Shown here piece after piece: positions 1,563-63,635 of a stretch of DNA of 64,000 bases. Made by a program: the position numbers and the translations under genes. The notes beneath the pieces are model-generated. The model was not told the DNA's origin. It did no database searches and was given only the letters and a program-made list of their open reading frames with translations. The first letter of the stretch is position 1, and every line of letters begins with the position of its first letter. This stretch comes from Sphyrna mokarran (taxonomy: Eukaryota). The stretch covers positions 58,404,001 to 58,468,000 of the forward strand of contig JAGIQG010000005.1 of assembly GCA_024679065.1 (NCBI GenBank). Reading direction: 5' to 3'.

Positions 1563-1563
<1 letters not shown>

Positions 1564-1613: not shown

Positions 1614-1615
<2 letters not shown>

Positions 1616-2029
1616 AGAGCATCGCCACTTACAGAGTTTTTAAGGCAGGATGTTTATTTTGTTTTGCAAGAGGACCATCAACACATGTTGAAGTCACTTA
1701 AACAGGCATTGTCAAAGGAAGCGTACATTGCACAATACCAAAATGATCTTAGACATTGATGGATCACAGAAAGATTTCGAAGCATGCATTATACAAGATG
1801 AAAAACTAATTGTACTTTGTTCTAAAAGTCTATCCCAAATGCAATCCAATTATTCAAACAATTCGAGATGTTTGTCTGATATTCAATATCATTAGATTCC
1901 ACACATAACTGCTTGCTAAATGGTTCATTGCGTAAAATAGACCACAAGGCATCAGAAATGATTTGACACAAACCACTGAAGAGTGTACCACTCACCCAGA
2001 CTGCAGCAATCATGATGAGGAGTTGCAGG

Positions 2030-4124: not shown

Positions 4125-5734
4125 GGTAGATGATGGCCACATGGTGTGGACCAGCTTGCAAGGTGCCCTGAGACTGAATTCATCGCAGAATAATAATAGT
4201 CTTATGGCAGAGGACAGTTTTAAAGGCTGATTAGGCACATTTTACATCTCAACAGAGCATAGTTCACATTGCCAATTGTAAGGAAATCCTTCAGGACTGC
4301 TATTGCCAAAATAAAGATGAGTCACCAACAACATGTAAAAGCAATGATCTATCAGCTGGTGAGCAGATTGGGAAGAATGTTTGACTGGAACACTGAGTCT
4401 CTTAGCTTTGGAAACATATGTTATCTTGCACCTCTGTGTCTCTGAATTAATGAAGCGGGTTATTCTTGGATCTCTTCCCCAGGTGCAATCATCAACAAGG
4501 AAGAAGACATCTTTGATTAGAGACATGAAAACATTCTGATGCATCCAACGCATCATTCATTCAGGTTGGCACATAAAAGGGATCACAATATCAGCCGTGT
4601 TTAGATGAAAACACAGAACTTCAATGCAACTAGGAAACTGAGCAGGAGAATAAACAATTCAAAATGGATCTGCCCACATGAGCAGAAAGGACTCCCCCTT
4701 CCTTTGGTGAGCTTTCTGCACAAAGCCCAATCCACACTAAGTGTTGACCATGAAGAAAGGCCAAAATTAGGAGGTTCAGAAGAATTGGCCATTTCTAATT
4801 CATGAAAGCGCTCCTGGAACTGGTTATCCAACCAAAGCATTGAGATTGATTTGTCACTGCTCCATTGTCACACGGTGCCAGGACACAAGTATGCAGTGAG
4901 CCTCAGGAACCTAATGCATGAAGTTGGTAATTTGAGGTCAGGCATTAACTCATGTGATAGCAGATTTATGTGGATCACTGACTAAACCTAGTTGACATTC
5001 TTGTAAAAGTAATGAAGAAGCATTTTGCTTGGGGATCAGTGAGGAAACTGGTGCAAATTCTGCAGATGAAATAAGAAAATAGTAAAAAGGAGTGATTGAC
5101 AAAGAGGTGTTTGTTATCTGTTGGGCAAATGCAATCACAGTAACTATTAATGCAATTATGCATTGACATTGTTATACAAATTATTTAGATTTATCTAATG
5201 ACTAGAGTTATAGCTGTGTCTAGCTGAAGCTCTTCCAGAAACTATAACCTAAAGTTGCATTGCAAGTGATGAACCAGGGAAGTTACTATAGACTGAAACT
5301 GTCAGAATATTTTTTGTCTCTTCCAATTGAATGGAGTTACTATGGACCTTAGTTGTCAAACTGCAGGATCTCAGTTGGCTTTCACTGCCTTGTATAAAGA
5401 TTCATTGGAATGGAAAAATTACAGTGTGGTATTCTAGAATGGAATAGTTAGATTGAAGAAACGTCAGTGTGCAGATTACTCTGTGGAAGAGATGAATGAT
5501 AATTTTCAAATTATAATTTGAACTCTTAATAACATTATTTAATCTGATAATCTATAAAACTGGTAATTAATTTAACCCTTTGCATTATAGTTGGCAATTA
5601 TAAATTCTGCATTCTACAGAGCAGATAGTCAAAGAGGACTTCACTGAGGTATAAAAATAGCAAACTGCATAGTTACATTTAGAATATCACTTCAAAATGA
5701 AATGAGAGGAAATACATTTAAATTGGTGAGAACA

Positions 5735-6530
5735 GCAGCATTATGATTATGTTCCTGGACTAATAATCCAGAAGCCTGTACCAATGATCAGAGAAATTAG
5801 TTCAAATGCCATCACTGCAAAAGTTAATTTCTTTCAACTTAATGAACATGGAATATAATTGTAGAATCCCTATTAGAATCAATGCAGAAAAGGCTATTTG
5901 ATCCATCAAGTTTGCACTGAGTCTCTGGCAGAGTATCTTATCCAGGCCCTTTCCCTCGCCCTACCCCCATAATCCAACATACTTACCATGGCTAATCCAT
6001 CTAACCTACAAATCTTACGGGGAAATTTTACCATGGCCAAGCCATCTGAGCTGTCCATCTTTGGACTGTTGGCAGAAACTGTTGGCACCCAGAAGGAATA
6101 CATGCAGAAATGGGGAGAATGTGCAAATTCCACACAGACAGTCACCCAAGGCATCACAATAATGATGACCACAAAACTGCCAGATTTCTATAAAAGCCCA
6201 ACTGGTTCTGTAATATCCTTTAGGTAAAAACATTTGCCAGTCTTACACAAACTGATCTATCTGTAATTCCAGAGCTATATTCGAGTGGTTGACTTTAACT
6301 GGCTACCTGTTGCACCAAATGGCTATGACAAAACTAAAACCAAATGGACCAACCAGCACCTAACGATCTATCAGTTGAGAGACAACAAATGCAGGCATAA
6401 CTCAGTCGACATTGCAAAATCCTCCTTGCTAATGCCTGGCAACTGGTGCCAGAACTGGGGGATCTGTCTTACAGAATAATTAAACAACAGGCTGGCAATG
6501 TCCCAGGCTGTCACGATGAACAGCATCTCT
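5735..6530 (+). mobile_element. tRNA-like head + SINE body running into the N-terminus of an APE endonuclease ('family B' LINE 5' end), interrupted by an HE1 SINE
   Basis: Head TGGACTAATAATCCAGA..AGTTCAAATGCC (5756-5810); body resumes ~6155; then CKILLANAWQLVPELGDLSYRIIKQQ (~6413-6490). Confidence 0.65.
5862..6150 (-). mobile_element. HE1-like SINE, CR1-type tail
   Basis: TAGAATCCCTA tail; core GGGGAGAATGTGCAAATTCCACACAGACAGTCACCCAAGG. Confidence 0.85.
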
Positions 6531-6621
6531 ATTGTGGAAGAAATCCTGGAAATGGCCAAAATTCCTAAAGACCTACTCCTGAATCTTGCATTTCCCATCT
6601 TTGTGGAGTTGAGACTGGAGT

Positions 6622-6912
6622 TTTTAAAGTTTATTTATTTATTAGTGTCACAAGTATGTTTCCATTAGCCCTGCAATGAACTTACTGAGAAAATCCCCTA
6701 GTTGCCACACTCCGGCACCTGTTCAGGTACACCGAGGAAGAATTTAGTATGGCCAATGCACCTAAGCAGCACATGTTTCAGACTGTGAGAGGAAACTGGA
6801 GCAACCAGAGAAAGCCCGCACAGACAAAGGGAGAATGTGCAGACCCCACAAACACAGTGATCCAAGCCGGGAATTGAACCCAGGTCCCTGATCACCATTC
6901 TACTGTGCTGCC
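6622..6912 (-). mobile_element. HE1-like SINE, alternative (Rex1-like) tail
   Basis: B-box CCGGGAATTGAACCCAGG, HE1 core, tail AAAGTTTATTTATT..AGTGTCACAAGTA. Confidence 0.9.
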
Positions 6913-7410
6913 CAGAATTGGGTCGATGCTTGTGATCTATGATTAACAGAGGCAGCTGCCTCCATTAAAGTGAGATGTTTGGAAGAATAAAATTGTGGAA
7001 TGTGGAAGGTGCAGATTTGAACTCATTTCTTAGTTCATTAAGACAGGCTTTATTAATCCAGGAACACAACCATGAATGGTTATAGATAGCTAGGATACGC
7101 CTTTGAAAAATTAAGTTACCTCTTTGGATATAGTTTTAGAACACCTTTGTAGCTGTACAGTACATTTTCAGAAAGGTCAGTCACGCTTTGCGAGGTACCC
7201 TCTAAGATTGTTAAATGTGAACATGAAACATGATTATGCACTTTTTACAGAGACTCATTGGAACTGTCAAGCTGGAAAAGACATCCAGGCACTATGCAGC
7301 TGTCAAGGAAGTGTCTACTAGTCAAGGAAATGTTACAGTGCTGTCTAGCCATCACCAGGCTTGGGCACACATGTCCAGTTGAAGATAACAGCTTTCCAGA
7401 GGAGTATCTG

Positions 7411-7862
7411 CTGCAAGACTGATGGGGTCCATTTTGGTTTTGAGGCAAAAATTGAGCCTTCGGTTGAGAACTTCAACTTCATCTATAGTCCGACAAATTG
7501 ACAATATACTTCCCTGCGGTATACTGTTATCTACTGTGGTGCCAGGAGAGGCTTGGTTGTTGCTGGTGGTGATTCCGAATTTCTCAAGTTTTCTGTTCTT
7601 GGTATGTATGTAGATGATGTAGTTTCTTTGTGTCATCTGCTTGGCAGAGTTTCGCAACTGATCTGCGTCCTGAGCGCAAGTTAAGAATATGGATTCTATC
7701 TTGGTTTTCAGGATGCGGTGTTTGCTGTGGAGCTGATGTATGAAGTAGTTGAGGAGTGTGAGAGAGGTGCGACGGCAAAGTATCTCAGCGTAGTTTGTGT
7801 TATAGGTTGACCTGAGTGGTTTCGTGATCTGTAGTCCTTTCGGTATCTTATCTTCTTTCTTG
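7411..7862 (-). mobile_element. Penelope-like element, inverted N-terminal ORF segment
   Basis: Minus strand reads ...KNRKLEKFGITT...EVEVLNRRLNFCLKTKMDPISLAADT, resembling the PLE pre-RT LxxGLxF region; directly abuts the plus-strand RT. Confidence 0.6.
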
Positions 7863-9520
7863 CATTTGAACCAAAGGTACTCCTTGTCACAATGGATGTC
7901 TCAGCGCTGTACGCCAGCATCCCTCACAATGATGGCATTGCTGCAACTGCCTCAGTACTCAACACCAACAACGGCCAGTTTTCAGATGCAATTTTACAAC
8001 TCATCTGCTTCATCCGGGACCACAATGTCTTCACCTTCAACAACCAGTCCTTCATCCAGACATATGGAACAGCCATGTGAATGAAATTCGCAATCAAAAT
8101 GCCAACATCTTCACGCACAGGCTTGAACAAGACTTCTTCAACACACAGGATCTTCAACCGATGCTATACACTAGATACATAGATGACATTTTCTTCTTTT
8201 GGACTCATGGTGAACAATCACTGAAACAACTATATGACGACATCAACAAGTTCCATCCCACTACCAAACTCATCATGGATTATTCTCCAGAATCGGTTGC
8301 ATTCTTGGATACATGCATCTCTATCAATGACGGTCACCTCAGCACCTCACTGTACTGCATGCCCACAGATAATTTCACGATGCTCCACTTCTCCAGCTTC
8401 CAACCTAAACACGCTAAAGAAGCCATCCCCTACAGACAAACCCTTCGTATACATAGGATCTGCTCAGATGAGGAGGATTGCAACAGACACCTCCAAACGT
8501 TGAAAGATGTGCTCATAAGAACAAGATATGATGCTCAACTCATTGATTGAAAAACCGCACAATCTCCTCAGAAGACAAACATAGGACACAGTGGACAGAG
8601 TACCCTTCGTCACCCAGTACTTCCCTGGAGTGGAGAAGCTACGACATCTTCTTCGGAGCCTTTGACATGTCATTGATGAGGACGAATATCTTGCCAAGGC
8701 CATCCCTATACCCCTACTTCTTGCCTTCAAAGAACCATATAACCTCAAACAGACCACTGTCCGCAGCAAACTATCCAGCCTTCAGGAGAACGGTGACCAC
8801 AACACCACACAACCCTGCCACAGCAACCTCTGCAAGACATGCTGGATCATCGAAAAAGTTGCCATCATCTCACGTGAGAACACCATCCACCAGACACACG
8901 GCACATACTGTTGCAACTCAGCCAACATTGTCCACTGGATATGTTGCAAGAAAGGACGTCCCAAGGCATGGTACACTGGGGAGACCACACAGATCCTACG
9001 ACAACGGATGAATGAGTACTGCTCGACAATCACCAGACAAGACCTGTTGGCGAGCAATTCAGTGGTCATGGGTATTTGGCCTCTGATCTTGAGGTAAATG
9101 TTCTCCAAGGCGGCCTTCACAACATATAACAGTGCAGAGTTGCTGAGTAGAAATTGATAATCAAGTTCCGCACACATGAGGATAGCCTCAACCGGGATCT
9201 TGGGTTCACATCACATTATCTGTAACCCCCATGATATGCCTGGGCTTGCAACATCTCACTTACTGTCCTGTCTGGAGACAATACACAACTCTTTAACTTA
9301 TGCTTATTGCGATCCCCACTCACGTTGTCTACCCCTTTAAGAATTGATTAGCTATAAAGACTCGTATTCTAATCAGTATTCTGTAAACTGAGTGCCTTCA
9401 TATGCCCTGTTAATGACCAGAACTCTCTAGTCACCTGACAAAGGGGCAGAACCTGAGAGGTAGTGGGTTTACTATCAAATAAACCTGTTAGATTTTAACC
9501 TAGTGTTGTGAGACTTCTTA
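7863..9520 (+). mobile_element. Penelope-like element: RT, GIY-YIG endonuclease and 3' pLTR (pseudogenised)
   Basis: TMDVSALYASIPH, GTAM, YTRYIDDIF, Cys/His linker and VHWICCKKGRPKAWYTGET (GIY-YIG). 3' end AAATAAACCTGTTAGATTTTAACCTAGTGTTGTGAGACTTCTTA is shared with the copies at 19108 and 48156. Confidence 0.92.
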
Positions 9521-10360
9521 TGGTCGCTCCACAAGACAGGGGCCCATCTTGACACCTGAAAAATGCCAGCAGAGGAAAAGGTTGCTGCTAGTGGGCCAAT
9601 TGATTGGAACAGTTGGTAGCGTAAAACTTTAGTTGGCAGATAGCCAGCCATAAAATTGTTGCTTCTGCCTTTGAAAATATCCAGTGGATATGTGAAAACA
9701 GTGGGCTTCCTTTCTGATGCTGTTTTATGAGTCCTTCCTCCTCCTAGCCTGTTTGCCAGAGGGCTGGTAAAATTCTGGATGGGAGAAGAGGAGAAAATTG
9801 ATCAGAAATCAAGTGTAAGAATGGATTAAAAACAGTTGTTGAAGTTAATTGCGGATTACTGAAAGGTTTTGAGAGTAACAAAGCTGGATACACCTACGTG
9901 ATATTGTCTGTGAATAAAAGCTCAAGTACCAAGGGACACACATAATGGAAACTCAGACTGCCAACATTCACACACTAGACAATGACAAAAATAAATGCAT
10001 TACATTTGATTAGAATATTGTGCTGAGTATTTAGTTGTCATTGCTGTTAATCCAAAAGCATTTTCATCATGTTTTTCATGGCTTTGTTATGCTGGTAAAC
10101 AACTTGTATTCTAAGGTTTTATCAGGATAAAGCAAAGCAGCAGGTAGCAGCTGACTATTATTCTGTAAACCTTGAACAGCATTGTATTGTAAGGCTGTCA
10201 TTGCTTGGCCCAGCACTGATCATGTGGGACAATAATTCAGCTTTGTAACATGATTGTTGTTGTCTCTTTTCTCTGGGTTTGCTGCATGGCCAAGGGAAAA
10301 ATGGTTACACAGCCTCCGAGTCAGCTGCAGAACGGGTGGCTGCATCCAAATTCAGGTTTC

Positions 10361-10377
10361 AGGTCACACTCAGGTCA
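10361..10377 (+). promoter_or_regulatory. Perfect DR5 nuclear-receptor element (candidate RARE): AGGTCA-cactc-AGGTCA
   Basis: Exact consensus half-sites with a 5-nt spacer in apparently non-repetitive sequence; extra AGGTTT half-site 1 nt upstream. Function untested. Confidence 0.45.
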
Positions 10378-11181
10378 AGGGAGACAAACGCGCTTCTTAT
10401 TTTCAACAGTCACTTCACAGGCTGCTGGAGTTCCAAAAAAATTGAATGGAGCGTGTTTGACTCCTGGCAATGGACTAGTGACCTGTTGTAGGAATAAATA
10501 GCTATGAAAATAGGTGACAGCCTGTCTTACTGTGCCACTAGGAGTGGCAAGAGAATTGGAATTGCAATGTTTGGCTCAGATTTTTCCTAATTTGACATCA
10601 GAGTCCCAAAACATAGTGTAGATAAAGTGCTGTCTACCTGTTTTAAGCTGGTATCTGGGTATTTGGCAATTATCAGCTGCCAATTTGTGGTAATTGAACA
10701 AGAATAATACTGTCTAAAATTGTTCCCCTAATCTTGATTTTTTTCCAGAAATCAGGTGCCATGTATACCAAATTCAACCCCACTGCTGTCTGTCTTGGTT
10801 TTGCGCACATGCCAAAAACATTGCACTGCCAGAACCACTTGGTACAACATGTATTGACCAACAAAGTGAAATACAAAGATAAGAAAAGAAAAAGTGATTT
10901 GGGCAATGGTGTCTCAAATGGTGTCTAAAAATCTTTTCCTTTCCATAAATAACTTGCTGCTATAACATATGGGCAGGTAGGTGAGAATGTAAATGCTGGA
11001 AGTTTGCTTAGATGTAAAAATTACAATTTCCAGAGGTAATTTTAATAACATTTTGGAGGATGCAGTAGCTGTCAGTATAAGATTCAACTAGAAAATTGGA
11101 TGAGACCTGAAATGGATAGAAACTTTTTTCTAGTTCTTGACTTTTCTAACAGTTCCATGCTCATTAATCAGATACCAATGA

Positions 11182-13370
11182 AGGAGGCAGTGTCATAGTG
11201 GTAGTATCACTGGTAATAACTAAATTAATGCTCTGGGGACATGAGTTGAATCTCACCATGGCAGCTGGTGGATTTTAAATTGAGTTGAATTCGAGCCAAT
11301 GGATTAGATCAAAGTTCTGCAGTCCTACCACATCCAGTCAAGAATGATGGTAGACAATTAAACAACTAACTGGAGGAAGGAAAGGCTCCACAAATAACCC
11401 GATCCTCAGTGATGGGGAAGCCCAACACATCAGTGCTAAAGACAAGGCTGAATAATTTGTAACAATATTTAGCCAAAAGTGCTGAGTGGATGATCCATCT
11501 CAGCCTCCTCTTGAGGATCCCACCGTCACAGATGCCACTTCTGAGCCAACTCAATTCACTCCTCATGATATCACAAAACAGCTGAAGGCACTGGATACTG
11601 CAAAAATAATGGGCTCTGACAATATTCCAGCAATGGCACCAAACACTTGTGCTCCAGAACTAGTTGCTGCCTTAACCAAGTTGTTCCAGTCTAGCAACAG
11701 TTCTGGCAGCTACCCAGAAATGTGGAAAACTGCCAAATGTCTAGTCCACAAAAAGCAGAATAAGTCCAACCCAGCTAATTACCATCCCATTAATCTACTC
11801 TCGGGTATCAGCAAAGAGATGGAAGATGCTGTTGATAGGGCTATCAAGCTGCACTCACTCAGAAATGGACTTCAATTTGAGTTCTGTCAGGGCCATTCAG
11901 CTCTTGCCTTTATCACAGTGCAAACATTAGCAAATTAGCTGAATGCAAGAGATAAGTTTGATTGCCCATTTGATGAGTATGGATTAAGGATTGCTAACAA
12001 AAGATGAATCAATGGGAAATGGGGGTAAACTCTTCTGTTTGGATTCATACCTAGCAAAAAGAAACTTGGTTGTGGTGATGGAATTTAATCACCTCAGTTT
12101 ATGGGCATCATTGGAGAATCCCTCAGGGTAGTACCTTAGCCCAACTATCTTCAGTTGCTTCATCAATGGCCTTCCTTCCATCATAATGTCAGAAGTGAGG
12201 ATGTAATAACACAAAGTTGAGCACTGTTCATGACCCCTCAGATACTGAAGCAGTCATGGTCCATATGGACAATATTCAAGCTTGATCTGACATGTGGAAA
12301 GTAATGTAGAAACCACACAAGTGCCAATCAATGGCTGTCTCCAATAAAAGAGAATCCAATTATCTTCCCATGATACTTAATGGCATTGTAATTGCTGAAT
12401 CTCCCACTATCAACATCCTGGGGTTACTCCTAACCAGTAAATCCACTAGACCAGTCATATAAATACCATGATTACAAGTGCAAATCAGAGCCTGTGTATT
12501 CATTGATGGCTAATTCAACTCCTGACTCCACAAAGACTATTCACTACCTACAAGGCACAGGTCAGGAGTGTGTTGGAAACTCTCCATGTGCCTAGATAAG
12601 TGCAGCTCCAACAACTTAAGAAGATTGATAGGTGAGTGATGGTGAAGTGGTAATATCTGTGGATGGGTAATCCAGATGTTCAGACTAATGCCCTGGAAAC
12701 ATGTGTTCAAATACTACCATAGCAGCAGGTGGAATTTAAAAAAAAAAATAAAATTTGGAAGTGAAAACCAGTAACATTAATCATGAAACCAATTGTCACT
12801 CATGTCTTTCAGGCAAGGAAATCTGCTGGCTTAGGGCTCATATAATGGTTGATTTTTTTTTTTAACTGTTCTCTGAAGTAGTTGAGTCAAGCAACTCGGT
12901 TCAATTATAGATGGGCAAAAAGTGCTAACTTTGCTAGTGTTGCAGATATTCCATGAAAGAATTTTACAAAACATTATCCAGGACAATGCAGCTTATCTAA
13001 TCCACCACCTTCAACATTCACTCCATCTATCACCAATGTGCAATAGCATCAGTGTGTGCCCTTTGCAAGATGCGCCGCAGCAATAGAACCATCCAAACCT
13101 GTGACCTCTATCACCAATAAGGACAGAGGAAGTGGATGCATGGGAACACCCCCCTTTTTCTAAGTTCCCCTCCAAGCCACACACCATCATGGCTTTGAAC
13201 TATATCGTTGTGGGATCGAAATCCTAGAACTCACTCTGAGGGTGTACCTGCACAATGTAGACTTCAGCGGTTCATGAAGGAAGTTTATTATCACATTCTC
13301 AAGGTAATTAGAGATGGGCAATAAAAATGCTGGACTAACCAGTGATGCCCAAGTTCTGTGGAAGAAATTT
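11182..13370 (+). mobile_element. CR1-group LINE 'family B': tRNA-like head joined to the RT region and 3' tail (internally deleted)
   Basis: Head GGAGGCAGTGTCATAGTGGTAG..GAGTTGAATCTC; ORF 11486-11938 (KSNPANYHPINLLS); PQGS.LSP..FSCFIN; tail AATTAGAGATGGGCAATAAAAATGCTGG. Confidence 0.85.
12631..12970 (+). mobile_element. tRNA-derived SINE family B (SacSINE1/Deu-like), nested in its partner LINE
   Basis: A-box TGGTGAAGTGG, B-box GTGTTCAAATAC, body AAGGAAATCTGC, tail TAGATGGGCAAAAAGTGCT matching the LINE B tail. Confidence 0.75.
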
Positions 13371-14429
13371 TAAAAATTGGAAAATCAATCCTTTCCTGTT
13401 TTCCAACAGAATAATATCACTTGTTCCCTGGCAGGCATCTTGTGGCTTCTGCATGACAAGTCCTTCAATATGCGACAGACTTACTTCATCATTTCCCACT
13501 GGGTCCCAGGAAGGGTCATCAGGACAACATGCTATACTTTCCTTGAAGGCATAATTTCCAGATCTTTGTCCACATGATGGATGTCTACAGCCTAGTTTAT
13601 ATTCTCAAGGCCAAACTGGAGAGCATGTAATTATGTTGAGTATTTGATGCTGTTATAGATGTTATCTGATCAGTTGACATTCCACTCTTAGAAAAGGAAG
13701 TTTGAGAAAACAGCCGGCACAGAATGTCATTTTGGAAATATGATGTTTTAAGAGGCATAAAAATGTTTAAAAGGCATAGAAAAGTTTAAAAAGGCAAAAT
13801 TTAATGATTTTAGACAGAAGTTGTTTGATAAGATCATATTTCCTGGCACATTTGCATTCTAATCACAACTGATACAAAACAGTATGAGTTTCTAATAAGT
13901 TGCAATGCTTTCTCTCTGTGAAAATCATCCACAAAGCTTGTGGATCTTTGAAGATGGTCTTGGAATTCAACTTTTTTAGCTGCATATGAAAAAGCACCTT
14001 ATGCAATTGGAACATGGTAGGGGAGAGAAGGCAGCTCAACAGGCTGGAGATGAGGTCTGAGCTGTAACATGGCGGAGGCAAAGTTGTGGGAGGAGGTGGA
14101 TGTGCTATGATCCAGGCAGGCCTCCAGGCCTTTCCTGCCTGCTTTCGTCTGGGAGCAACCAAAGACTGCCAGGGGGGTGTTGAAGCACCCTCTCAATCAT
14201 TTCTATTCAATGCAGCCAGCTGCTTTCCTGAAGCTGGAAGTCTTCAATTGACCCTCCAGCTTTAAGAGCCAGGCTACCACCAATATGCCAATTACCAGAA
14301 GGGAAAGTAATATAATTTGGAAATGATTGCTACTTGGCTGAACTTGTCTTGTATACCTTAAAATGGAAATCCATTTTGGGCACTGCTGTCATTGTTTTAA
14401 CTTTTTTGGAGCTGGCACCTCTATTAAAA

Positions 14430-14730
14430 TTATTTGTAAATTTGAGGCCATCCAAAACTCTGCTGTCTATTTCTTAACTCTCACCAAGTCCAGTTTACCT
14501 ATCACTCATGTACTCATTGAGTTTTGTTGGTTCTTGATCAAACAAGGTCTTGATTTTCAATTCTCATTCTTGTATTTAAATCGCTCCTTATCCCTTCTTC
14601 CAGCTCTACAACTCTGTATGTTATCTGGTCTCTTGGGCATCCCCGAGTATAATCTTTCCACAACTGGTGGTGATGCCTACAACCGCCTCAGCCCTAAGCT
14701 TTGGAGTTCCCTCTCTACCTCACTCTCCAA
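14430..14730 (+). mobile_element. L2-type LINE ORF2 C-terminal remnant
   Basis: IQNSA..LT.TK...PITHVL....W and GG.A....PKLWSSL in ORF 14363-14734. Confidence 0.75.
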
Positions 14731-15103
14731 GTGAGACTCTGAGTGCCTTATGATCATGAGCAACTGCTAGAAAGGCAAATGCTAACCATACATTAGAAGA
14801 ATGGAAATACGCAAAAATTAGTTGAGGTTTCTGTGCAATGTGTATGGGGGAGCTATTCATCATTGCTATCTCTCTTTCTTTGGGTGCAAAGTAAACATTG
14901 GGTGAACCAATTTTGGGTTGCAGCCCCTCAGATGTGATTTAATTATAGTGGGGTCCTCTTCAGCCATTGCTCCAGAGCTAAACATGCCATGGGTAGCACA
15001 GTAAATCTCGACCATTGTCAGTCCATCACAATAGTAATAGAAATGATCATCACAACATGCATGGGTGTTTGATAGAAGATTGAGGATTCATCTCCGTTCA
15101 TGC

Positions 15104-15928
15104 TGTCACAATCCCAGCTGTTGTTAATACTGGACAAGTCATATTCCAAGATGAAACCTGGCTTGATAGATGCCAACCTTTTCTTCTAGAGAAAAATTAT
15201 TGAACAAATTCAAGGGAGTTTAGTGATGAACTTCTAACAACAAAAAATAAAATATTTATTAAAGAAAAATGAACAACGTTACACCAGATAAAAAAAAAGT
15301 TGGAAAGATTCCAATACAAACACAGGAAGATTTATCCCAGGGATATACTTGCAGCCACACAAGCCAGTGATTAATTTGACATACAAAGACTTCACTGGAA
15401 TTGGCACAGTTTTCTTGTAGTCAATTATTGAACATTCACTCAATGCTTTTCACCCATTCCATATCTCCCACTGAAACACTCTATAACCCAATCTTTCAGC
15501 TGATCATTTCACTGAGTTCTATACCTGATAACTTAAGTAACTACTGTCCCTAATACCTCAGCAATTTTTTAAAAAATCTGAAGTGGAAATTCATGTCCTC
15601 TCTCTGATACACGTTGAACTCACTCTTGTCCCTTTTTGTGTATCTGGAATAGGCACCACAACGCAACTCTACAGTTTCTTTTTCCAAATTCACTAAAAAT
15701 TTAACCCATCTATTTACTTCCTGAGTTGTAAAATCTCATTGAAAATGCATAGATACAAAAAAAAAACCCAAAAGACCTGATCAGGCGTCTATCCAGACTT
15801 CCTGACACCAAGATTCACAAACAAAACCTAAATAAAATTGGAACCCTTCTTACTTGGCTTGTCACACAAATACATATATATATTATGTTCAACTTAAAAG
15901 TTATACATTGTTCCTAATAATATATCTC
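15104..15928. mobile_element. Possible solo LTR
   Basis: Starts TGTCACAATCCC, minus-strand AATAAA near 15257, possible CA end; no TSD found. Confidence 0.3.
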
Positions 15929-16029
15929 AGGACTGGATGTGTCAGGACTGCAGAGCTTAGATCTGATCCATTGGTTGTGGGATTGCTTTGCTCTATCTAT
16001 TGCTTGCTGCTTTTGCTAAAAAATTACAT

Positions 16030-18188
16030 TTGGCGTGCATGTAATCCTGTGATATAGCTTCAACAGGTTGACACTTCATTTTTCAGTATGCCTGGTGCTG
16101 CTTTTGACATGATGGTAATGATAGAGTACAAGATACGCTGGGTATGAAGTTAAAGATTGTGGTTGTGTACAATTCTGCAGCTGCAGAAGGCCCAGTTTTG
16201 AATTGCTGGATCTGTTCAAAATCTTACCTATTTACCTTTGCCTCTGTGCAGTGGTTACTCCTACTACTACTCTAATGGACAGATATATCTGTGAGAGGTA
16301 AATTGGTGATTCCCCCCTCGCTGGTTGCAGACCCAACAAAGCAGCTGTGACTTTTAGAATTCGGCCAGCTGAGTCAGGAGTGGTGCTACCAAATCATGCT
16401 TGGTGAAAGGACATTGAAGTTGCCTACCCAGAACACATATTCTGTGCCCTGTCCAATCTCATTGCTTCCTCCAAGTGCTGCTCAACATGGAGATGCACTG
16501 ATTCATCAGCTGACAGGGGCAGAGAGTAAGTGGTAATCAGTGTTTTTCCTTGCTTATGTTTGATCTGATGCGCTGACACTTCATGGGCTCCAGAGTCAAT
16601 GTTGAGAACTCCCTCCTGACTCTATACTATGTGCTGTGTGTCTTCGGCTGGGTCAATCCTGCCAGTAGAATGGGGCATATCCAGAGATGGTGATGGTGAT
16701 ACCTGAGACAGTGTCTGTCAGGTATAATTCTGTGAATAATACTTTTGTCCGGCTATTGCTTAACCGATCTACATGACAGCTCTTCCAATTTTGAGAGGAG
16801 TTTGCAGATCTAACTTGTTGGGTGCCACAGGGTTTGGTCCTCAGGTCCCAGATAATTACAATCAATATTAGTGACTTAGATGAGGGGATAGTAGGTATCA
16901 TTGTCAAATTTGCAGATGACATTAAAATAGGTGGGATAGTAAGTTGCAAATATGAAATAGGGCAAATTTTGCCCTAAGTGAATAGGTCAAAATTTGGCAG
17001 ATGGAGTCTAACATGGGTAAGTGTGATGTTATTCATTTTGGTAGGAAAAATTCAAAGGCAAATTATTATCTAAATGGAGGGAAACTTCAGAGTGCTTTGA
17101 TGCAGAGGGGTCTGGATCTCTTCGCAGAAAACTAGTGTGCATGTAAAGCAGGTAATAAGGAAGGCAAATGAATTTATTGCTAAAGGAATAGGATATAAAA
17201 GTAGGGAATTGTTGCTGCTGCTGTGAAAAGCATTAGTGAGACCACATGCAGAACTTTGTGTACAGTCCCCTAACTTGAGGAGGGATGTCGTTGCATTGGA
17301 AGCAATTCAGACGAGGTTCACCAGATTAATTCCAAAGATGAGGGGTTTGACTTACAAAGATAGATTGGCAGTTTAGACCTATACTCCCTGGAGTTTAGAG
17401 GAATGAGAGGAGATCTAATTGAAGTGTACAAAACGATGAAGGGAATCAACAGAAAAGGTGAAGAGGATGTTGCTTCTTGTAGGGCAATCTAGAACAAGAA
17501 GTCATAGTTTTTAGATAAAAGATATAAAACAGAGAGAGGAGAAATTGTTTTCTCAAAAGGCATGAGTCTGTGGAATTCACTACTGCAGACCGCAATGGTC
17601 CTTTGAGTAAATTTAAGGAAGAGGTGGACAGATTTTTAATAAATAAGGGTTTGAAAGGCTATGCTGAACAGGCAAGAAAATGGAGCTGTGGCCAAAATGA
17701 GATCAGTCATGATTGTATTAAGTGGTGGGGCAGGCCTCATGTGCTCAAGGTGCCAATTGCTGTTCCTATTTCTAGATGATTCTTATGCTAGTAATCCTTT
17801 GCAGGGTTAAGTGGACATTGTTACTTATGATGCCGAGGTTGGTGCTGGGTTTCCATTCCTTCTTGTAAGATTTATGGCAGTTTGATGCAACTGAATAGCT
17901 TGCAAGACCATTTTGGAGTGCATTTAAGATTCAACCACATTGCCGTGGGTATGAATCTGGAGTTGCCTGTGTATTAGGCCAGGTAAAGAAAGCAGATTTC
18001 TTCCTGTGAAGATCAATAGTTAACTAGTTGGGTTTTTAATGACAATCAACAATGGTTCCATGGTCACTATTACTAAGACTAGATTTTTAATTGCAGCTTT
18101 TTGACTCAATGTTGTGAGAGGTGAATATACATCCCTGGGCCTCTGTATTACTAATCTGGTGATATTACCATTGCACCACTGCCTCCCC
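16030..18188 (-). mobile_element. LINE family B 5' portion: tRNA-like head, SINE-like body and APE endonuclease (split by a CR1 insertion)
   Basis: Minus strand starts GGGGAGGCAGTGGTGCAATGGTAATATCACCAGATTAGTAATACAGAGG. After the CR1 insert: KLEELSCRSVKQ*PD.VLFTELYL, GNFNVLHQ (~16420) and SNH (~16255), which are APE motifs. Confidence 0.75.
16808..17787 (+). mobile_element. 5'-truncated CR1 LINE
   Basis: VPQG.VL.P, KFADDIKIGG, C-terminal EVDRFLINKG, 3' UTR ending TTCTTATG. Confidence 0.9.
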
Positions 18189-18775
18189 AATCTGAGAAGG
18201 ATAAAGGCAGATTTGACAGAGATGTTGAAGGGTTGTGGTGGTGCAACAAGAAACTGCTACAGTAACAAAAGAATCAGATACCAGAAGATCCAGCTTTTGG
18301 ATAGTTGCAATAAAACACAAAATATAGTCTTTTATCCAGCAAGTTTTTTTTATTTATTCATGAAATGTGTGCACCACGGACTATATCAGCATTTTTTGCC
18401 CATAATTAATTGACCTTCAGAAAATGGTGCTGAGCTGACTTCTTGAACTGCCTCAGTCCCTGTAAGTACACCCCAAATTTGGTTAAGGAAGGAGTTCCAG
18501 GATTTTGATCCAGCAACAGTGAAAGGATGGTAATATATTCCCATGCCAGAATGGAAAATGGCTTGGATGGGAATTTCCAGGTGGTGGTATTCCCATCTGT
18601 CTGCTGCCTGTTTCCTTCTTGATGGTAATTGTCATGGGTTTGGAAGGTGCTGGCTAAGGAGTCTTGTTGATTTCTGTAGTGCATCTTGTTGATGGCACAC
18701 AATGCTACCATTGTGCATCAGTGGTGAAGAGATTGAATGTTTGTGGGCTTATTGAGCATTTTTTGAGTTGCACTC

Positions 18776-33149: not shown

Positions 33150-33358
33150 AGGTGATTTTTCTCCCTAAATATCATTAGTGAATCAGATGAGTTTTATGAG
33201 AAATCAACCATTTGTTTCATGGTCATTGAACTTTTAATTCCAAATTTTTAAAATACTGGATTAAAATTTCACCATCTGCGGAGGTGGGATTCAAACCCAG
33301 GTCTCCAGGCTATTACTCTGGATTGCCAGTGAAAATACCACTAGCTACTGCCTCCCCG
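33150..33358 (-). mobile_element. SINE family B (head and body)
   Basis: Minus strand GGGGAGGCAGTAGCTAGTGG..CTGGGTTTGAATCCCACC. Confidence 0.75.
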
Positions 33359-40939: not shown

Positions 40940-41170
40940 CTACTATAGGCCAACATTTATTGCTCATCCCTACTTTCCTTTAAGAAGGTGTTGTTGAATT
41001 ATCTTAATGAATCAGACTCAATGGCTTTCCAGGTTATTTTAGAAGCCAGTTAAGATTTAAAACACATTGATGTGGTTTTGGACTTTTATGTATGCCAGAC
41101 TGGGCAAGGGCAGCAGATTTCCTTCTCTAAACAATTTAGTACACCTGATGGATTTTTACAACAATTCCCA
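40940..41170 (-). mobile_element. SINE family B (tail and body), truncated by a CR1 insertion
   Basis: Tail GGCCAACATTTATTGCTCATCCCTA; body GCAGATTTCCTTC. Confidence 0.7.
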
Positions 41171-42370
41171 GGGGTCAATGTGGAACCCTTTAGTTTTTCT
41201 GATATATATTAATGACTGGAACCTTGGTATGCAGGGCACAATTTCAAAATTGTACATGATACGAAACTTGGAGGCACTGTTAACTATGTAGAGGACAGCA
41301 AAGAACTTCAAAGGGATATAGACAAGTTGGTGGAATGGATGAACAATTGGCAAGTGAAGTTCAATGTGCATCCATGTAAGATGATGAACTTTGGTAGGAA
41401 TGACATGGAGAGACAATATTAAATAAAGAATACAATTCTGAAAAGGGACAGGAATAGGAGGATCTGGATATATTTGTGCATAAGTCATTGAAGGTGTTAG
41501 AACAAGCTGAGAGAGTAGTTAAAGCATCCAATATCTTAGGTTTTATTAACATGACCATAAAAGCAAGGTTGTAAAGTTTAAATTGTCTTTGATATTAGTT
41601 TACCCTTAGCTGGAATATTGCATCCAGATCTGGAAACCACACTTTAGGAAGCATATGAAGTCATGTAGCAAGTCATGCAGAAGAGGTTCATAAGAATGTT
41701 TCCAGGATAGAGGAACTTAATTTATGAAGATAGACTAGAGAACTTAGGACTGTTTTCATTGAAGAGAAAAAGGCTGAGAGGGGATCTCATAGAGGTAATC
41801 GAAATCATAGAACATGGAACAGAGAACATAGAACATTACAGCGCAGTACAGGCCCTTCGGCCCTCGATGTTGCGTCGACCAATGGAACCAATTTTATGAC
41901 CACTAACCAAAACTATTCCAATGCTATCCATGTGCCTATCCACTGACCATTTGAACGCCCTTAAACTTGACGAGTCCACAACTGTTGCTGACAGGGCATT
42001 CCATGCCCTTACTACCTACATGAGGGATCTGAACAGTTGGTAGGGGAAAACTGTTCTCACAAGTGAAAGGATTGCGAATGAGAGTGTACAAATTTAAAGT
42101 AATTGGCAAAAGGTACAAAAATGAAATGAGAAAGATATTTTTCATGCAGTGGGTGATTGGGCTTTTGAATCCACTGCCTGGTGCAGTCAAGTTCAATAGA
42201 GATATTCAAAAGGAACTAGATGGCAACTTAGAAAGGAAGAATGTACAGGGAGGAGGCTGGAAAACTGCAATAGAATAGCTCATTTGGAGAGCCAGTGTGG
42301 TGTGAAGCTTCACACAATGGGCCAAATGGTCTCCTTCTCCTCTGTAAAAACTCTGTAATTCTATGATTCT
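41170..42370 (+). mobile_element. Older CR1 LINE 3' part
   Basis: PQGS...PLVFLIYINDW, LEYCIQIWKPHFRK; tail CTCTGTAATTCTATGATTCT. Confidence 0.88.
41806..42017 (-). mobile_element. Short young-type CR1 3' fragment nested in CR1
   Basis: CATAGAACATTACAGCGCAGTACAGGCCCTTCGGCCCTCGATG; CAT at both junctions. Confidence 0.85.
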
Positions 42371-54619: not shown

Positions 54620-54852
54620 TTTTATTCTTTTAATTTATTAATGGGACATGGGCATTTCATTTATTGCCCATCCCTACACGTCCTTAGATAGCAGTTGAGA
54701 GTCAACCATCTTGTTGTGGCTGGGAGTCACATGTAAGTCAGACAGGTAAGGAAGACAGATTTCCTTCCCTAAAGGACATTAGTGAACCAGATGGGTTTTT
54801 CTGGCAATCGACAATAGTTTCATGGTCATTAGCAGATTCTTACTTCCAGATG
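54620..54852 (-). mobile_element. SINE family B (tail and body)
   Basis: Tail CATTTATTGCCCATCCCTA; body CAGATTTCCTTCCCTAAAGGACATTAGTGAACCAGATGGG. Confidence 0.78.
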
Positions 54853-55581
54853 TGAACCCTCTTGCTATAATTCTGTAGTCTCCTGTCACAAGGAGATGTT
54901 ATCTTCTTGCCTCTATACTTCTGCCAAAAGGATGCCAGTGGAAGCAAGTGAGAATCACAAGGCTATTCTAAAAAATCGACTCCTGGATTCTGTGCTCCCA
55001 TATTTTTAAATGATCTGCCATGTCTAGCCACAACGGTATTTTATCCATTGCAGCTGCCCAGAGTCATCTCACCTTTCTGATGAAATTAGCCAGTCAAGAT
55101 TGAGAATACTGTTACAAGCGTAAAATTTTCTACTTGTCTCTGAAAAAATGAAACCATATTCTGGTAGTGTCACATGGTCACATGATCTGCCCCTGTGGCT
55201 TTGCCAGGAAGAAAAAAACCAGATCTTTTTTTAAGAGCATTTCCTACAAATTGTTCATTTACAAATCTATTTTGTTTGATGTTACCATTTATTTTTTCAA
55301 GTCTTGTTAGTTGAATTATTTTTCTTTGCATTGCTGGTATGGATACTTCTTGTCCTCTAATAGACAGTCCAGATGGTGAAGATTTTTTCAGTGTGTTTTG
55401 AGCTGTTTGTCTGCCCATTTGACTGGTACTTGGGAACGGTGGCAAAGATAACCAGTCGAACAGGTCAGAGAAAACAAAGGTGATGCACTTATCATGGTTA
55501 ATCTACCACTCAGGCCCCTGGAGGCTGCTGCAGAGTTTGTACCATACCAGATGGAGGTGATGACAAGGCTCTTAGGGTAAA

Positions 55582-56811: not shown

Positions 56812-56912
56812 AGGAAGAGATGGTGGCATAGTGGTATGCTCACTGGACTAGTAATCCAGAGACTCAAAGTAATGCTCTGGAAGCATGAGGTCAAATCCCC
56901 TCATGGCAGATG
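56812..56912 (+). mobile_element. SINE family B tRNA-like head
   Basis: GGTGGCATAGTGGTATGCTCACTGGACTAGTAATCCAGAG..GGTCAAATCCC. Confidence 0.75.
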
Positions 56913-56914
56913 TA

Positions 56915-58585
56915 TGTCTCTGGAAATAGGCTCAATAGTTTAGATAATGAACCTCACTTTCAATTCACCTTAAGCAAATTTTAATTGAACAACAGTTCTG
57001 TCATTTGCCCATTTGTAACAGGATGATAAGGAGCAGATCAGATATGTTAAATATCATTCTTCTTTAAATAGTTTGGGAACTATTGCAAAATGAACTATGG
57101 CCCATTGTCACTCACAAGTTATTCAGGATAATTAAATCTTCCAAAAATCTCATGCAGTCGTTCTATTGTTCTTTCCAAGGATATTGTCTTTATAATGGGT
57201 CTCTTGAGCGTGCATTGACAACAAAGAGAAACATAAACGTTTTGAATGGTTTGGCATGATCTACATGAACACTTTGCCATGATCCTTCTAGCTATTTCCA
57301 TGTCTTCTCCTTGATTTTGGAATCAAGCCCTGGTCACCAAACATGGCTTCTAGCTATGTCCTTCTTTCTTACTATACCACAGAGACCTTCCTATAGTAAA
57401 GTAAATAGTTACTTAATAAGAGCAGAATGGTGTCCTCGTTCCCCAGAGGACACAACTAGTTTGTACGGATAGTTTGAGGTTTTGGATGACATATGGCTTC
57501 AACTCCCATGGTCTTGCTACAAAGTACCATATTCATAAGTCCTGATAGTTGTGGATCATTTCTGGTATATTTCGTAACTTATTGTGTGGTTACAGAGTGT
57601 TACTTGCTCGAAGCAGAAAATGTTTCCATCTAACTGTTCATTGATGCCTTATTGGGTAAAGTTAATTGGGAGAGTCCATGAGTGTTTGAAGGAGATTTGA
57701 TGGTAAGATTTTATTGTGTGTGCTGACAACAGCAATGCCCATTGCTGCATCCAGCTCACTGCCAGAAATGGAATCTCAGTATGAGGTCCAAAGAGGTGGC
57801 ACGATGGCACAATGGTTAGCACTGCTGCCTCACGGCTTCAGGGACCTGGGTTCAATTCTTTCCTCAGGTGACTGTCAGTGTGAAGTTTGTAAATTCTCCC
57901 TGTATCTGTGTGGGTTTCCTCTGAAAGATTCGGTTTCTTCCCACAGTCCAAAGATGTGCAGGTTAGGTGAATTGGTCATGCTAAATTGCCCCTTAGTGTC
58001 AGGGGGACTAGTGGGGTAAATACTTGAGATTATAGGGATAGGACCTGGGTGGGATTGTTGTTGATGCAGGCCTAATAAGCCAAGTGGCCTCTGTCTGTAC
58101 TATAGGGATTCTATGATTACTGTTAATGGGTGATGATTTGTTAATAAAGTAACTGTCCTTCCAAAAAGGTATTGGTACAAATGTTTGATGCTGAAAATGA
58201 TCCTTAGAACTTTTCTCGATCTGTACATAGTTAATTTCTGCTTTGTTCAACGGTCTTGATGCAAAAGCTGTCAGCTTCTCTTAATCATTAAGCATTTTGT
58301 GAGAATCAACTGCTCCCATCCCATAAGGCAATGAGCCTCAAAGATAGATTCGGATCAAATTTTGTCAGGACTTCTGACTTCAGTAGCGCCTCTTTAACTT
58401 TCTTGCATTGATCCACTCAATTCCATTTCCTGTTTTGATACAGTAACTTGTGCAAAGGCTTAAGGATAATTGCTAGATTAGGAAAAAAACCTTCCATAAT
58501 AGCTTAATAAACCCAAAAAATAATGAAGCTGATTGATGCTTTCAAGTACAGTTGCCATAGTAATGGACGTTACTTATGAAGATCT
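56915..58585 (-). mobile_element. Decayed Ty3/Gypsy pol fragment (RT thumb-RNase H-integrase)
   Basis: FLGLLSYYGRF, AFASRPLNKAEINYVQIE, IFGRFNYPE.LVSDNGP, SAPYHPVTNG. Confidence 0.88.
57795..58118 (+). mobile_element. Full-length HE1-like SINE, CR1-type tail
   Basis: A-box TGGCACAATGG, B-box GGTTCAATTC, tail TAGGGATTCTATGATT. Confidence 0.92.
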
Positions 58586-59349: not shown

Positions 59350-59462
59350 TAGATCAGGACCCTAGCTTCAGAATCAACTATGTCACTCTCCACCTTGATG
59401 CAGGATTCTATCATATTATGGTTGCTTATTCCCAAGAGATCTTGCAAAACTAGATTGCAATT
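59350..59462 (-). mobile_element. CR1 endonuclease fragment
   Basis: LGNKQP/HNMIE region corresponding to the CR1 'LG.SDHNMIEF' motif. Confidence 0.5.
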
Positions 59463-59466
59463 TAAC

Positions 59467-61334
59467 ATGCAAGGTACAACATCAGGCATACCCAGAAATG
59501 AGGTGTCAATCTAGTGAAGCTGCAGCTCAGGATTATTTGCATGTCAAACAGCATATGCAGCAAGTGATGGGCACAGCTAAGCAATCCTACAACCAGCAGG
59601 TCAGTTCTAAGCTCTGTAGTCCAATCCTAAGCAGCTGTGGATGGTGACAGACCATTATACAACTCCCTATCCCCAGTGATGGAAGAGTCCAGCACATTTG
59701 CTACAATTATTAACTAGATGTGCCAACATATGATCAATCTCAACCTCCTCTGGAGATCCCCAGCATCACAGATGTTACTCTTTAGCCAATTGGAATCACT
59801 CCATGTGATATCATGAAATGGCACAAGGCACTAGGCAATTGGCTGTGACACTCTTCCAGCAAAAGTACTGAAGACTTGCTCTCTAGAGCTTGCTGCCTCC
59901 CTGCAACAAGCTAAGCTGTTCCAGTACAGTACAACACTAGCATCTACCCAGCAATATGGAAAATTCCCAGGTATGTACTGTGAATAAAATGCAGGGCAAA
60001 TCTCACCTGACCAATTATTGCCCCATTAGTCTATTCTCGACCATCAGTAAAGTGATGGATGGGGTCATCAAGAATGTGATCAAGCAGCACTTCCTCAGCA
60101 ATAATCAGCTCACTGTTGCACATTTTGAGGTCTTTCAGGATCATTCAGCCTTGGTTCAAACATGAACAAAAGAGTTGAACTCCAGAAGCGATATGAGAGT
60201 GACTGCCCTTGACATCAAGGCCCAATTTCACCAAGTATGGCATCAAACAACCCTATCAAAATTAAAGGTAATGGAAATCAAGGGGAAATCTCACTATTAG
60301 TTGGAGTTAGATGTAGTACAATTGTTGTGATTGATGGATATCAATCATCTTAGCAGCAGGACATCACTGTAGGAATTCCTCAAGGTAGAGTCAAGGCCTA
60401 ATCACATTCAGCTGCTTCATCAATGATCTTCCTTCCATCATTAGATCAGAAATGGGGATTGCCATTGATATACAATGTTCAGCACTTTTCACAATTCCTC
60501 CATCGCTGAAGCAGTCCATGTTTAACTGCAACAAGACTTGGGACAATATCCAGACTTGGGTTGACAAGTGGCAAGTAACATTCATGCCACACAAGTGCGA
60601 GCGATGACCATCTTGAAAAAGAGAGAATCTAACTTCGCCCATTGACATTCAATTGCTAAATTCCCCACTATCAACATCCTGGGTAGTACCATTGACCATT
60701 GCACTGGAATAGTCATATAAATAGCGTGGCTACACAAGCAAGTCAGAGACTAGGAATCCTGTAGTGGATGTCTCACCTCCTGACTCCCCGAAGGCTGTTC
60801 AAAATCTGCAAGGCACAAGTAACAAATGTGATGGAATATTTTCCCCTTACCTGGATGCGTGCAGTTCCAATAACACTCAAGAAATTTGATACCATCCAGA
60901 ATAAAGCAGCCTGCTTGATTGGCATATCTTCCACAAAAAGCCATTCACTCCATCACAATTGCACAGTGATAGCAGTCTGTATCATCCGCAAGATGATGTA
61001 CTGTAACAACTCCCTAAGGCTCCATGAACAGTACGTTTCAAGCCTGTAACCATACTACCTAGAAGGGCAAAGGCAGCAGATACATGGGAACACCACCATC
61101 TGCAACTTCCCCTCCAAGTTACATAACATATTGACTTGGAATTGTATTGGCATTCCAACATTGTCACTGGGTCGAAATTGCAGAACTCCCTCCCCACTGT
61201 GGGTTTTCCTACAGCACATGGATTGCAAAAGTTCTAGAAGGTTGCTCACCACCATGTTCTCTAAGGCAATTTAGGATGGACAATAAAAGCTGCCATAGCC
61301 AGTGACGTGCAACATGAACAAAAATTTTAAAAAT
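59467..61334 (+). mobile_element. CR1-group LINE family B, RT region to 3' tail
   Basis: TNYCPISLFSTISKVMDG, ALDIKAQFHQVWH, GIPQG, ICKAQVTNVMEY; tail GGCAATTTAGGATGGACAATAAAAGCTG. Confidence 0.88.
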
Positions 61335-63329: not shown

Positions 63330-63635
63330 GTAATAGCTCATCAACAGCACTTTCCAAACCTGCAATCCTAACCACTTTGAACGACAAGTGCAGCAGATGT
63401 GTTGGAACACAAACCTCTGTACATTCCCCTGAGATGCCATGCTGAGTTGGAACTATATTACTGTTCCTTCACTGTCACTGGATCAAAATCCTGGAATTTC
63501 ATTCCGAACAGTATGGGTGTAACTACACTACATGTACTGCAGAAGTGCAAGAAAGCACCTTCACTTTCTCAAGGACAATTAGGACAAATTCTTCCTTGCC
63601 GTTGTCACTGACATCCCATGAACAAATAACAAAAA
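63330..63635 (+). mobile_element. LINE family B 3' fragment
   Basis: Homologous to 13080-13370 and 61020-61330; TCTCAAGGACAATTAGG..CATCCCATGAAC. Confidence 0.75.

Follow-up and report, generated by a model that had tools for sequence, protein, structure and literature searches.

We report that LINE B, a retrotransposon of Sphyrna mokarran, is best read as an elasmobranch Zenon with a fixed tRNA-Ser head and a sense strand free of T4 runs, probably transcribed whole by Pol III, whose SINEs are its own two ends joined, likely through repeated internal deletion. The case for Pol III combines two features of the sequence—A and B boxes in a tRNA-Ser head, and a sense strand without T4—which together make transcription of the whole LINE by this polymerase likely. 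A LINE consensus that includes the head has already been published (PMC13343379); the origin of the head, the loss of T-runs, and the link to a SINE are not described in the main text of that paper.

LINE B and SINE B loci in the window

The window is a 64-kb stretch of the S. mokarran genome. Its LINE B and SINE B features are given below, with "nt" denoting positions in the LINE B reference.

5726..5852, plus strand: old-type tRNA-Ser-derived head, decayed, nt 1-130 (79/125 aligned nt)
6160..6503, plus strand: body and linker, then the opening ~25 codons of the endonuclease, nt 141-516 (E 3e-28, translation)
11183..11284, plus strand: head of an internally deleted LINE copy, nt 3-115
11294..12629, plus strand: RT region directly after that head, nt 1440-2846 (E 4e-217)
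12631..12970, plus strand: SINE (nt 7-318 and LINE tail) inserted into the 3' part of the LINE copy
12971..13365, plus strand: rest of the SINE-interrupted LINE copy through the 3' tail, nt 2845-3283
15927..16812, minus strand: endonuclease and following region, nt 444-1489, same copy as 17793..18188
16812..17793, plus strand: later CR1 insertion, orientation opposite to the LINE copy (blastx, CR1 ORFs of the genome, E 6e-30)
17793..18188, minus strand: old-type head, body, and linker, nt 1-436 (E 5e-33)
18348..18747, minus strand: 3'-terminal part of another old LINE copy, nt 2886-3289
33152..33357, minus strand: head and part of body, nt 1-219, without tail
40946..41217, minus strand: 5'-truncated SINE, junction class ~316/3190
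54630..54853, minus strand: 5'-truncated SINE, junction class 290/3221
56818..56923, plus strand: head only, nt 5-109, without tail
59453..61311, plus strand: 5'-truncated LINE copy, nt 1302-3269
63335..63629, plus strand: LINE 3' fragment, nt 2961-3287

The first two features belong to one LINE copy, which stops after its ~25 endonuclease codons; its decayed head scores 86.5, against a mean of 43 and a maximum of 70.5 in 500 shuffles. The original prediction had this copy and the one starting at 18188 on the minus strand run straight from head and body through a common linker into an endonuclease. The order and the linker motif stand at both loci, but the runs are not straight—in the first, other repeats place ~310 bp between head and body, and in the second the ~980-bp CR1 sits between linker and endonuclease, breaking the first endonuclease codons. 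A third head, placed at 11182 and said to join the RT region, does so: it abuts nt 1440, between endonuclease and RT. Five tailed SINE loci had also been proposed; those at 12631, 40940, and 54620 have the tail, while those at 33150 and 56812 have none and could be remnants of either SINE or LINE. LINE tails lie at 13365, 18348, 61311, and 63629.

Identity and architecture of LINE B

LINE B is a single-ORF elasmobranch Zenon of 3.29 kb. Its reference is a CpG-aware majority of copies, made alongside a plain majority and an old-subfamily majority. The ORF starts at nt 429 of this genome-wide reference and encodes an APE endonuclease and an RT in ~940 codons; the 428-nt 5' region holds no long ORF and there is no ORF1. 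An A-rich run terminates all 26 full-span copies, as a poly-A tail. The RT groups, with support of 0.997-0.999, in a clade (21-31 RTs) that also contains proteins of moths, lancelets, and sponges and is separate from the CR1 elements of the same genome; the tree contained no named Zenon RT, and the name is given because of a 5' match to published consensuses. These are the Zenon LINEs CarCar, HypSab, RhiTyp, ScyCan, and SquAca of Stuart et al. 2026 (PMC13343379), then absent from repeat repositories according to that paper. They are of the LINE B family—3.2-3.3 kb, without ORF1, with a poly-A tail—and the supplement consensuses open with the head, body, and linker of LINE B. A shared-word protein search found no long relatives.

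All LINE B copies examined are dead: each of 127 protein-search matches is partial or contains stops, and the main family diverges by ~12% from its reference. In ray and shark species, PMC13343379 records a few ORFs that are intact. The old and young majorities differ at 68 codons synonymously and at 51 by replacement; purifying selection thus acted on the ORF during the time that the head was retained. The conserved AUG at nt 349 is in a different frame from the endonuclease, which could then be reached only by frameshift or from a non-AUG start; no in-frame AUG lies upstream of the endonuclease in LINE B, whereas six of seven non-shark relatives examined have a readable start with one. An apparent subfamily one base shorter between this AUG and the endonuclease (about half of copies) turned out to be scattered single deletions.

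The head as a fixed 5' end

We selected 81 LINE B loci by coding sequence and then measured their 5' extent. Fifty-seven reach nt 290 or less, within the SINE-like 5' region, and 37 begin within nt 1-25; the rough chance rate of reaching SINE-homologous sequence is 0.003 per locus, and chance is excluded as the source of the linkage. Head-to-tail copies make up 26 of the 43 long loci. No alternative common 5' end adjoins truncated copies among 77 flanks compared. Many 5' ends also concentrate near nt 175-195; this was rejected as another start because the sequences upstream are unrelated from copy to copy. Target site duplications of at least 8 nt flank 5/26 LINE copies (swapped-flank controls 8%) and 2/18 SINE copies (controls 4%), with one case of 18 nt at copy L043.

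Could the heads be independent SINE insertions beside LINE fragments? SINEs with the same head are abundant and other repeats interrupt both window loci; we nevertheless consider this reading refuted, with next to no probability left to it, by the ORF-selected 5' ends and by the published consensuses of five species, which have the same structure. Linker and spacing are constant across dozens of copies, each with unique flanks, and no copy carries a SINE tail between body and linker. Genome-wide we saw neither variable head-endonuclease junctions nor full-length copies with another 5' UTR or an ORF1, the outcomes named beforehand as contrary to the prediction. Contigs from public sequencing runs of five other organisms also bridge body, linker, and ORF start. 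One run, presumed to be RNA, contains matching contigs; we do not take them as evidence.

tRNA-Ser origin and promoter boxes

ARAGORN on the 64-kb window and Rfam on five loci found no tRNA because the copies are too decayed, and the head was therefore compared with the genome's own tRNA genes. The young head is identical to a tRNA-Ser gene at 50 of 73 nt and the old head at 45 of 69, within the SINEBase threshold of at least 60% tRNA identity over at least 60 nt; judged by this similarity, the head derives from tRNA-Ser. The A box (nt 11-21) and B box (nt 74-84) are intact and match the consensus, and the LINE 5' end lies 10 nt upstream of the A box, as at a Pol III start. Such boxes point to Pol III use without proving it. 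Among LINE copies, the variant most frequent in SINE heads forms a minority (6/49 classified), and no ORF letter tells the two young variants of the head apart at p < 0.003.

Loss of T-runs from the sense strand

The CpG-aware reference and the old-subfamily majority contain no T4 run, and the plain majority has one, at a CpG-decay site. Zero T4 is not significant by itself (p about 0.09 given LINE B's own codon use), so the case rests on T3 runs, Phe codons, and comparison across families. The ORF has 3 T3 runs against 12.1 expected under synonymous-codon shuffling, and none of 4000 shuffles has so few; TTC outnumbers TTT 16:2 among its Phe codons. Runs of A, C, and G are at normal levels. 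Avoidance of self-insertion was set aside as a cause because A-runs are normal. In comparisons that set the LINE B majority sequence against single copies or contigs, none of 96 related LINE ORFs is T4-free, and T3 observed/expected is 0.25 in LINE B against a minimum of 0.59 among the 96. From the same genome, four RTE ORFs of equal T content show about the expected number of T3 runs and 2 T4 runs apiece, and five CR1 ORFs carry 7-13 T4 each. Upstream of 10 Zenon-clade control ORFs, several with short or no 5' flank, there is no pair of A and B boxes.

These data bear on an alternative in which the head is fixed on the LINE but the LINE is transcribed by Pol II, from body, head, or flanks; the head would be Pol III-active in the SINE only, and T-runs would have been lost through, for example, RNA processing or codon preference. 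Pol II is the default for LINE transcription (PMC3531059, PMC10886601), capped RNA would be easier to translate, and some T4 scarcity occurs elsewhere: the RTE ORFs fall mildly below their expected 3.6-6.3, and three T-poor control ORFs (L360, L339, L340) reach as low as 1 T4. We think this alternative unlikely, though not negligible—the depletion is specific to T and to the sense strand, which has 14 A4 runs; it persists after control for codon use; it is equalled in 0/96 relatives and 0/9 in-genome controls; and the 5' end lies where Pol III would start.

SINE B is built from both ends of LINE B

SINE B consists of LINE B nt 1-290 (or ~317) fused to the last 70-100 nt, and all its bases map onto these two ends; the 29 non-self SINE loci all comprise LINE 5' end plus tail. 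A first look gave 3588 candidates, LINE 5' ends among them; 66 SINE copies were verified, and 18 full copies measure 318-400 nt. SINE B is short and non-coding, with a tail in common with its partner LINE. The 66 copies fall into three junction classes, of 44, 10, and 12 members. Junctions recorded for SINE copies include ~317/3221, ~319/3193, and 290/3221. No class has SINE-only sequence. Head letters, and tail letters both old and young, are common to LINE and SINE of equal age. SINE B is LINE B with its ends joined, likely via repeated loss of the middle, in line with the earlier proposal that the SINE tail is the LINE 3' end and the SINE an internal-deletion derivative.

Junctions ~317/3221 and ~319/3193 occur with old and young heads alike, which requires that deletion struck the same sites more than once or that ends were exchanged afterwards. 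They also lend something to another account, in which an older, independent SINE lineage gave the LINE its 5' part and the ends were then swapped by template switching, the SINEs not being deletion products. Of the common classes the longest, nt 1-319 plus 3193-end, includes all the sequence of the other two, which could be its deletions, and the body (nt 95-290) may have come from such a lineage. Yet both ends track the LINE, demanding two exchanges per generation where one deletion would do; copy L170 retains the LINE linker to nt 337; the classes lack any sequence of their own; and the headless Zenon of moths repeatedly yields such deletion derivatives (PMC6740152). We regard the older-SINE account as improbable and keep to joined LINE ends.

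Order of events and proposed mechanism

The original prediction offered two options, a tRNA-headed LINE with a SINE formed by deletion or a LINE that had captured a SINE, and the sequences favour both, in succession: they support capture of the head before the SINE-forming deletion. Capture is placed first because the head opens 7/7 elasmobranch Zenon consensuses in the PMC13343379 supplement and none of three from hagfish and coelacanth (first 400 nt), and nothing in 129 non-shark relatives matches it; deletion is placed second because SINE bases all map to LINE ends, in three junction classes, with ends that change in step. The loci of one invertebrate relative were absent from metagenome and viral contigs, and narrower alignments then succeeded; the one viral-contig match was weak and was left out.

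Zenon would have gained the head in the shark-ray stem lineage, by template switch onto tRNA-Ser RNA or an older tRNA-SINE. The head would then serve as an internal Pol III promoter, with terminators purged by selection over 3.3 kb, and transcription would stop at the first T-run in flanking DNA. The uncapped RNA would be translated, by frameshift or non-AUG start, into the endonuclease-RT protein. The joined structure that we observe may have arisen by DNA deletion or by an RT jump that left the template near its 3' end and resumed at nt ~290-320; promoter plus RT-recognition tail would make a working SINE in a single step. As a whole—a coding 3.3-kb LINE with a captured tRNA-Ser promoter, transcribed in full from it by Pol III from a time preceding the shark/ray split, purged of terminators, translated from uncapped RNA, and acting as a one-step SINE factory—we judge this scheme somewhat probable from sequence.

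Known systems and significance

A parallel exists in Lepidoptera, for which Wang et al. 2019 (PMC6740152) described the SIDE Persaeus and a Zenon LINE. That Zenon, like LINE B, has a single ORF, ~3.3 kb, and several derivatives made of 5' and 3' parts; microhomology or a template jump was proposed for Persaeus. SINE B shares the composition from both ends of a partner LINE but is not tRNA-free: Persaeus is described without tRNA homology or a Pol III promoter, whereas SINE B would have been tRNA-headed from birth. Bipartite RTE/Vingi SINEs such as Bov-tA (Kojima 2018, PMC5786205) likewise take their body from the LINE 5' region and their tail from its 3' end; there the tRNA head came only once the deletion had occurred, and Pol II is assumed for the LINE, while LINE B itself bears the head. 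The TRIMs Cassandra, Helenus, and Ajax (Kojima 2024, PMC10886601) also adopted a small-RNA-derived Pol III promoter, but are non-autonomous, non-coding, <1.3 kb, and of the LTR class; LINE B is autonomous and coding. The suggested link to SacSINE1/DeuSINE (Luchetti et al. 2017, PMC5499810) is not supported: this shark SINE has a tRNA head and conserved body, as does SINE B, but its tail is described as matching an L2 LINE (L2-2_CM), not the Zenon 3' end.

The words "tRNA", "promoter", and "polymerase III" occur 0 times in the main text of PMC13343379, and we found no account of the head or of its Pol III use in the papers searched; the PMC5499810 supplements and one PMC4824008 file may contain the SINE. 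Limits on Pol III transcript length are assumed in print (PMC3531059, PMC10886601), and the working divide in the field gives LINEs to Pol II and SINEs to Pol III, with Pol III restricting element length. If our reading is true, this divide would be broken by a LINE that codes for protein, has a tRNA promoter, and is free of terminators along its 3.3-kb sense strand; such a LINE would be a natural example of Pol III RNA serving for protein synthesis. It would also offer a direct path to the birth of a SINE, and an origin for the SINE body, by deleting the middle of a LINE.

The 5' End of LINE B

LINE B is a member of the elasmobranch Zenon family of LINEs; its reverse transcriptase (RT) groups, with good support, with proteins of moth, lancelet, and sponge, separate from CR1 of the same genome. 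The 3290-nt reference, the majority sequence of its copies to which nucleotide numbers refer, has a single ORF (nt 429-3245) with endonuclease (PF14529) and RT (PF00078) domains and holds no ORF1. We gathered copies by coding sequence only, taking the best-scoring matches, which biases the set towards long copies; 88 loci minus 7 duplicates left 81 for analysis. As the original prediction had it, full-length LINE B begins at a tRNA-like head—the element starts at nt 1-25 in 37 of the 81 loci, the others starting at nt 26-100 (5), 101-290 (15), 291-428 (5), or later (19), with two chains in these counts spanning ~1-kb gaps that may join separate copies. Head-to-tail extension was seen in 26 of 43 long loci, no common sequence abuts the 5' ends among the upstream flanks of 77 loci, and contigs from other organisms' sequencing runs bridge body, linker, and ORF start. 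The tRNA-Ser head is the fixed 5' end of LINE B. The target-site duplication looked for around the unit is mostly absent, alike for LINE B and for SINE B, the short element with the same head and body and a tail matching the LINE B 3' end. Truncated 5' ends cluster at nt 175-195 (L009, L012, L058, L064, L066, L067, L126, L131), adjoining a predicted stem in the body, and possibly mark a reverse-transcription stop. Every LINE B copy seen in the 2.77-Gb S. mokarran genome is decayed. Among named proteins, the nearest hits are shark ones.

Aligned with tRNA-Ser genes of the same genome, the head is identical in 50 of 73 nt and has a variable arm 10 nt longer; both its A box (nt 11-21) and its B box (nt 74-84) agree with the consensus in LINE B and SINE B copies. 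At one locus (L248, G000:C982), tRNA genes for Ser, Trp, and Arg are clustered, and several further copies resembling tRNA-Ser(UGA) lie along that contig. The supplement of PMC13343379 contains seven shark and ray Zenon consensuses, and within the first 400 nt of each entry the head stands at the start of all seven, and not of three hagfish and coelacanth Zenons. The main text of that paper makes no mention of tRNA, promoters, or Pol III; hence the Zenon family of sharks and rays is already published, while the anatomy of its tRNA head was not found described in the literature searched. A comparison with 129 non-shark relative loci gave nothing below E 0.19 for head or body, and moth Zenon derivatives are without tRNA homology (PMC6740152); the head would therefore have been acquired within the elasmobranch lineage.

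Copies in the Window

All the pieces named in the original prediction—heads, bodies, linkers, LINE and SINE parts—were found; the uninterrupted runs from head to endonuclease were not. At 5735, ~310 bp of other repeats split head from body, and at 18188 a ~980-bp antisense CR1 fragment lies between linker and endonuclease. The head at 11183 is indeed joined to LINE B, at nt 1440, in a copy with an internal deletion into which the SINE at 12631 was later inserted. Three of the five SINEs described as tailed have the tail, and two lack it. A short inverted piece (7015-7078, minus strand) resembles the 5735 head, itself decayed, at 76%, but is not significant against the head majority. Several LINE B and SINE B copies are interrupted by the first of these further repeats:

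6016-6146, 6620-6890, 29583-29706, 32829-33146, 45912-46232, 53217-53517, 55683-56187, 57795-58121, 62568-63316: second, younger SINE family, which we take to be the V-type HE1 SINE
7880-9520 and 19109-19814: decayed element coding for RT, its end resembling GIY-YIG by eye, two copies 78% alike, probably Penelope-like

SINE B as Two Joined LINE Ends

SINE B is composed of LINE B's two ends. All 29 non-self loci matching the junction of the SINE at 54620 join nt 1-290 to the last ~70 nt; a second search found junctions at ~317/3221 and ~319/3193, and one at 337/3227. Among 66 copies, 44 have the junction at 290, 10 at 319/3193, and 12 elsewhere. SINE B junctions appear as loose ends in other organisms' sequencing-run contigs. 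By the SINE criteria tested, SINE B is a SINE; its tail rules out SacSINE1. It is built from LINE ends just as Persaeus-type deletion derivatives are, but departs from that promoterless type in its promoter-type head. Known bipartite SINEs, as PMC5786205 describes them, gain a tRNA head after deletion, whereas LINE B itself is already headed; that paper also mentions a tRNA-like stretch in RTE-1_DAn.

Head letters are common to LINE and SINE copies of like age, among the older as among the younger; one diagnostic tail site is T in 7/8 old LINEs and 4/7 old SINEs, and C in 26/35 young LINEs and 28/43 young SINEs. SINE B and LINE B may be long-lived partners exchanging ends—two junction classes are present at both ages, and the commonest SINE B head variant is in the minority among LINE B copies, both counting against recurrent deletion. 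Recurrent deletion from contemporary LINE B accounts for both ends with one event per instance, and we infer that SINE B arises in this way. Loci L245 and L246 are the same SINE copy with its flanks on a small and a chromosome-scale contig, a duplication or haplotig.

Loss of T-Runs

Pol III terminates at runs of at least four T (T4). There are none in the CpG-aware LINE B reference or in the majority of 17 older copies, and one in the plain majority, at a decayed CpG. Runs of three T (T3) number 3 in the ORF against 12.1 expected when synonymous codons are shuffled (0/4000 shuffles as low), A, C, and G runs being at expected numbers; Phe is encoded by TTC 16 times and TTT twice. Taken alone, the absence of T4 from the ORF has p ~0.09 by this shuffle; for LINE B recoded by fourfold-site composition, p is 0.003. 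None of the nine same-genome control ORFs tested, out of 31 (four of RTE, five of CR1), has a comparable T3 loss, and 96 related LINE ORFs of other organisms, 10 of them of the Zenon clade, include no T4-free ORF and a lowest T3 observed/expected ratio of 0.59, versus 0.25 in LINE B. T-runs have been lost from LINE B, and because controls and relatives are without comparable loss, head gain and terminator loss fall in the same lineage. Old and young ORFs differ at 68 synonymous and 51 replacement codons, with third positions making up 72 of 125 changes; the ORF remained under purifying selection over the same period.

A young RTE family (L249, L256, L262, L269) has ORFs of at most 919 codons with T4 mildly below expectation. 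Loci L360-L408 are intact eukaryotic LINE ORFs within bacterial metagenome-assembled genomes, apparently host contamination.

Translation and Transcription

In 6 of 7 non-shark relatives examined, an in-frame AUG lies 10-55 codons upstream of the endonuclease motif. The conserved AUG that opens LINE B nt 349-429 (e.g. L145:875-960) occupies the position of this start codon, after an A-rich spacer of variable length, and is present in all copies and in the published shark and ray consensuses; located at nt 349, it belongs to a different frame from the endonuclease, whether the copy is old or young. The endonuclease frame across nt 349-429 is open and basic, and inter-lineage changes there, judged by eye, include three silent in this frame versus one in the AUG frame. 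R2 elements have uncapped RNA and are not known to have a conserved AUG, and by analogy could be a model for LINE B translation from uncapped RNA.

The retroelements known to use Pol III are short and code for no protein (PMC10886601), whereas LINE B is protein-coding and 3290 nt long. We incline, on sequence grounds, to the view that the whole of LINE B would be transcribed by Pol III; the order of events would have been head capture, terminator loss, and SINE birth.
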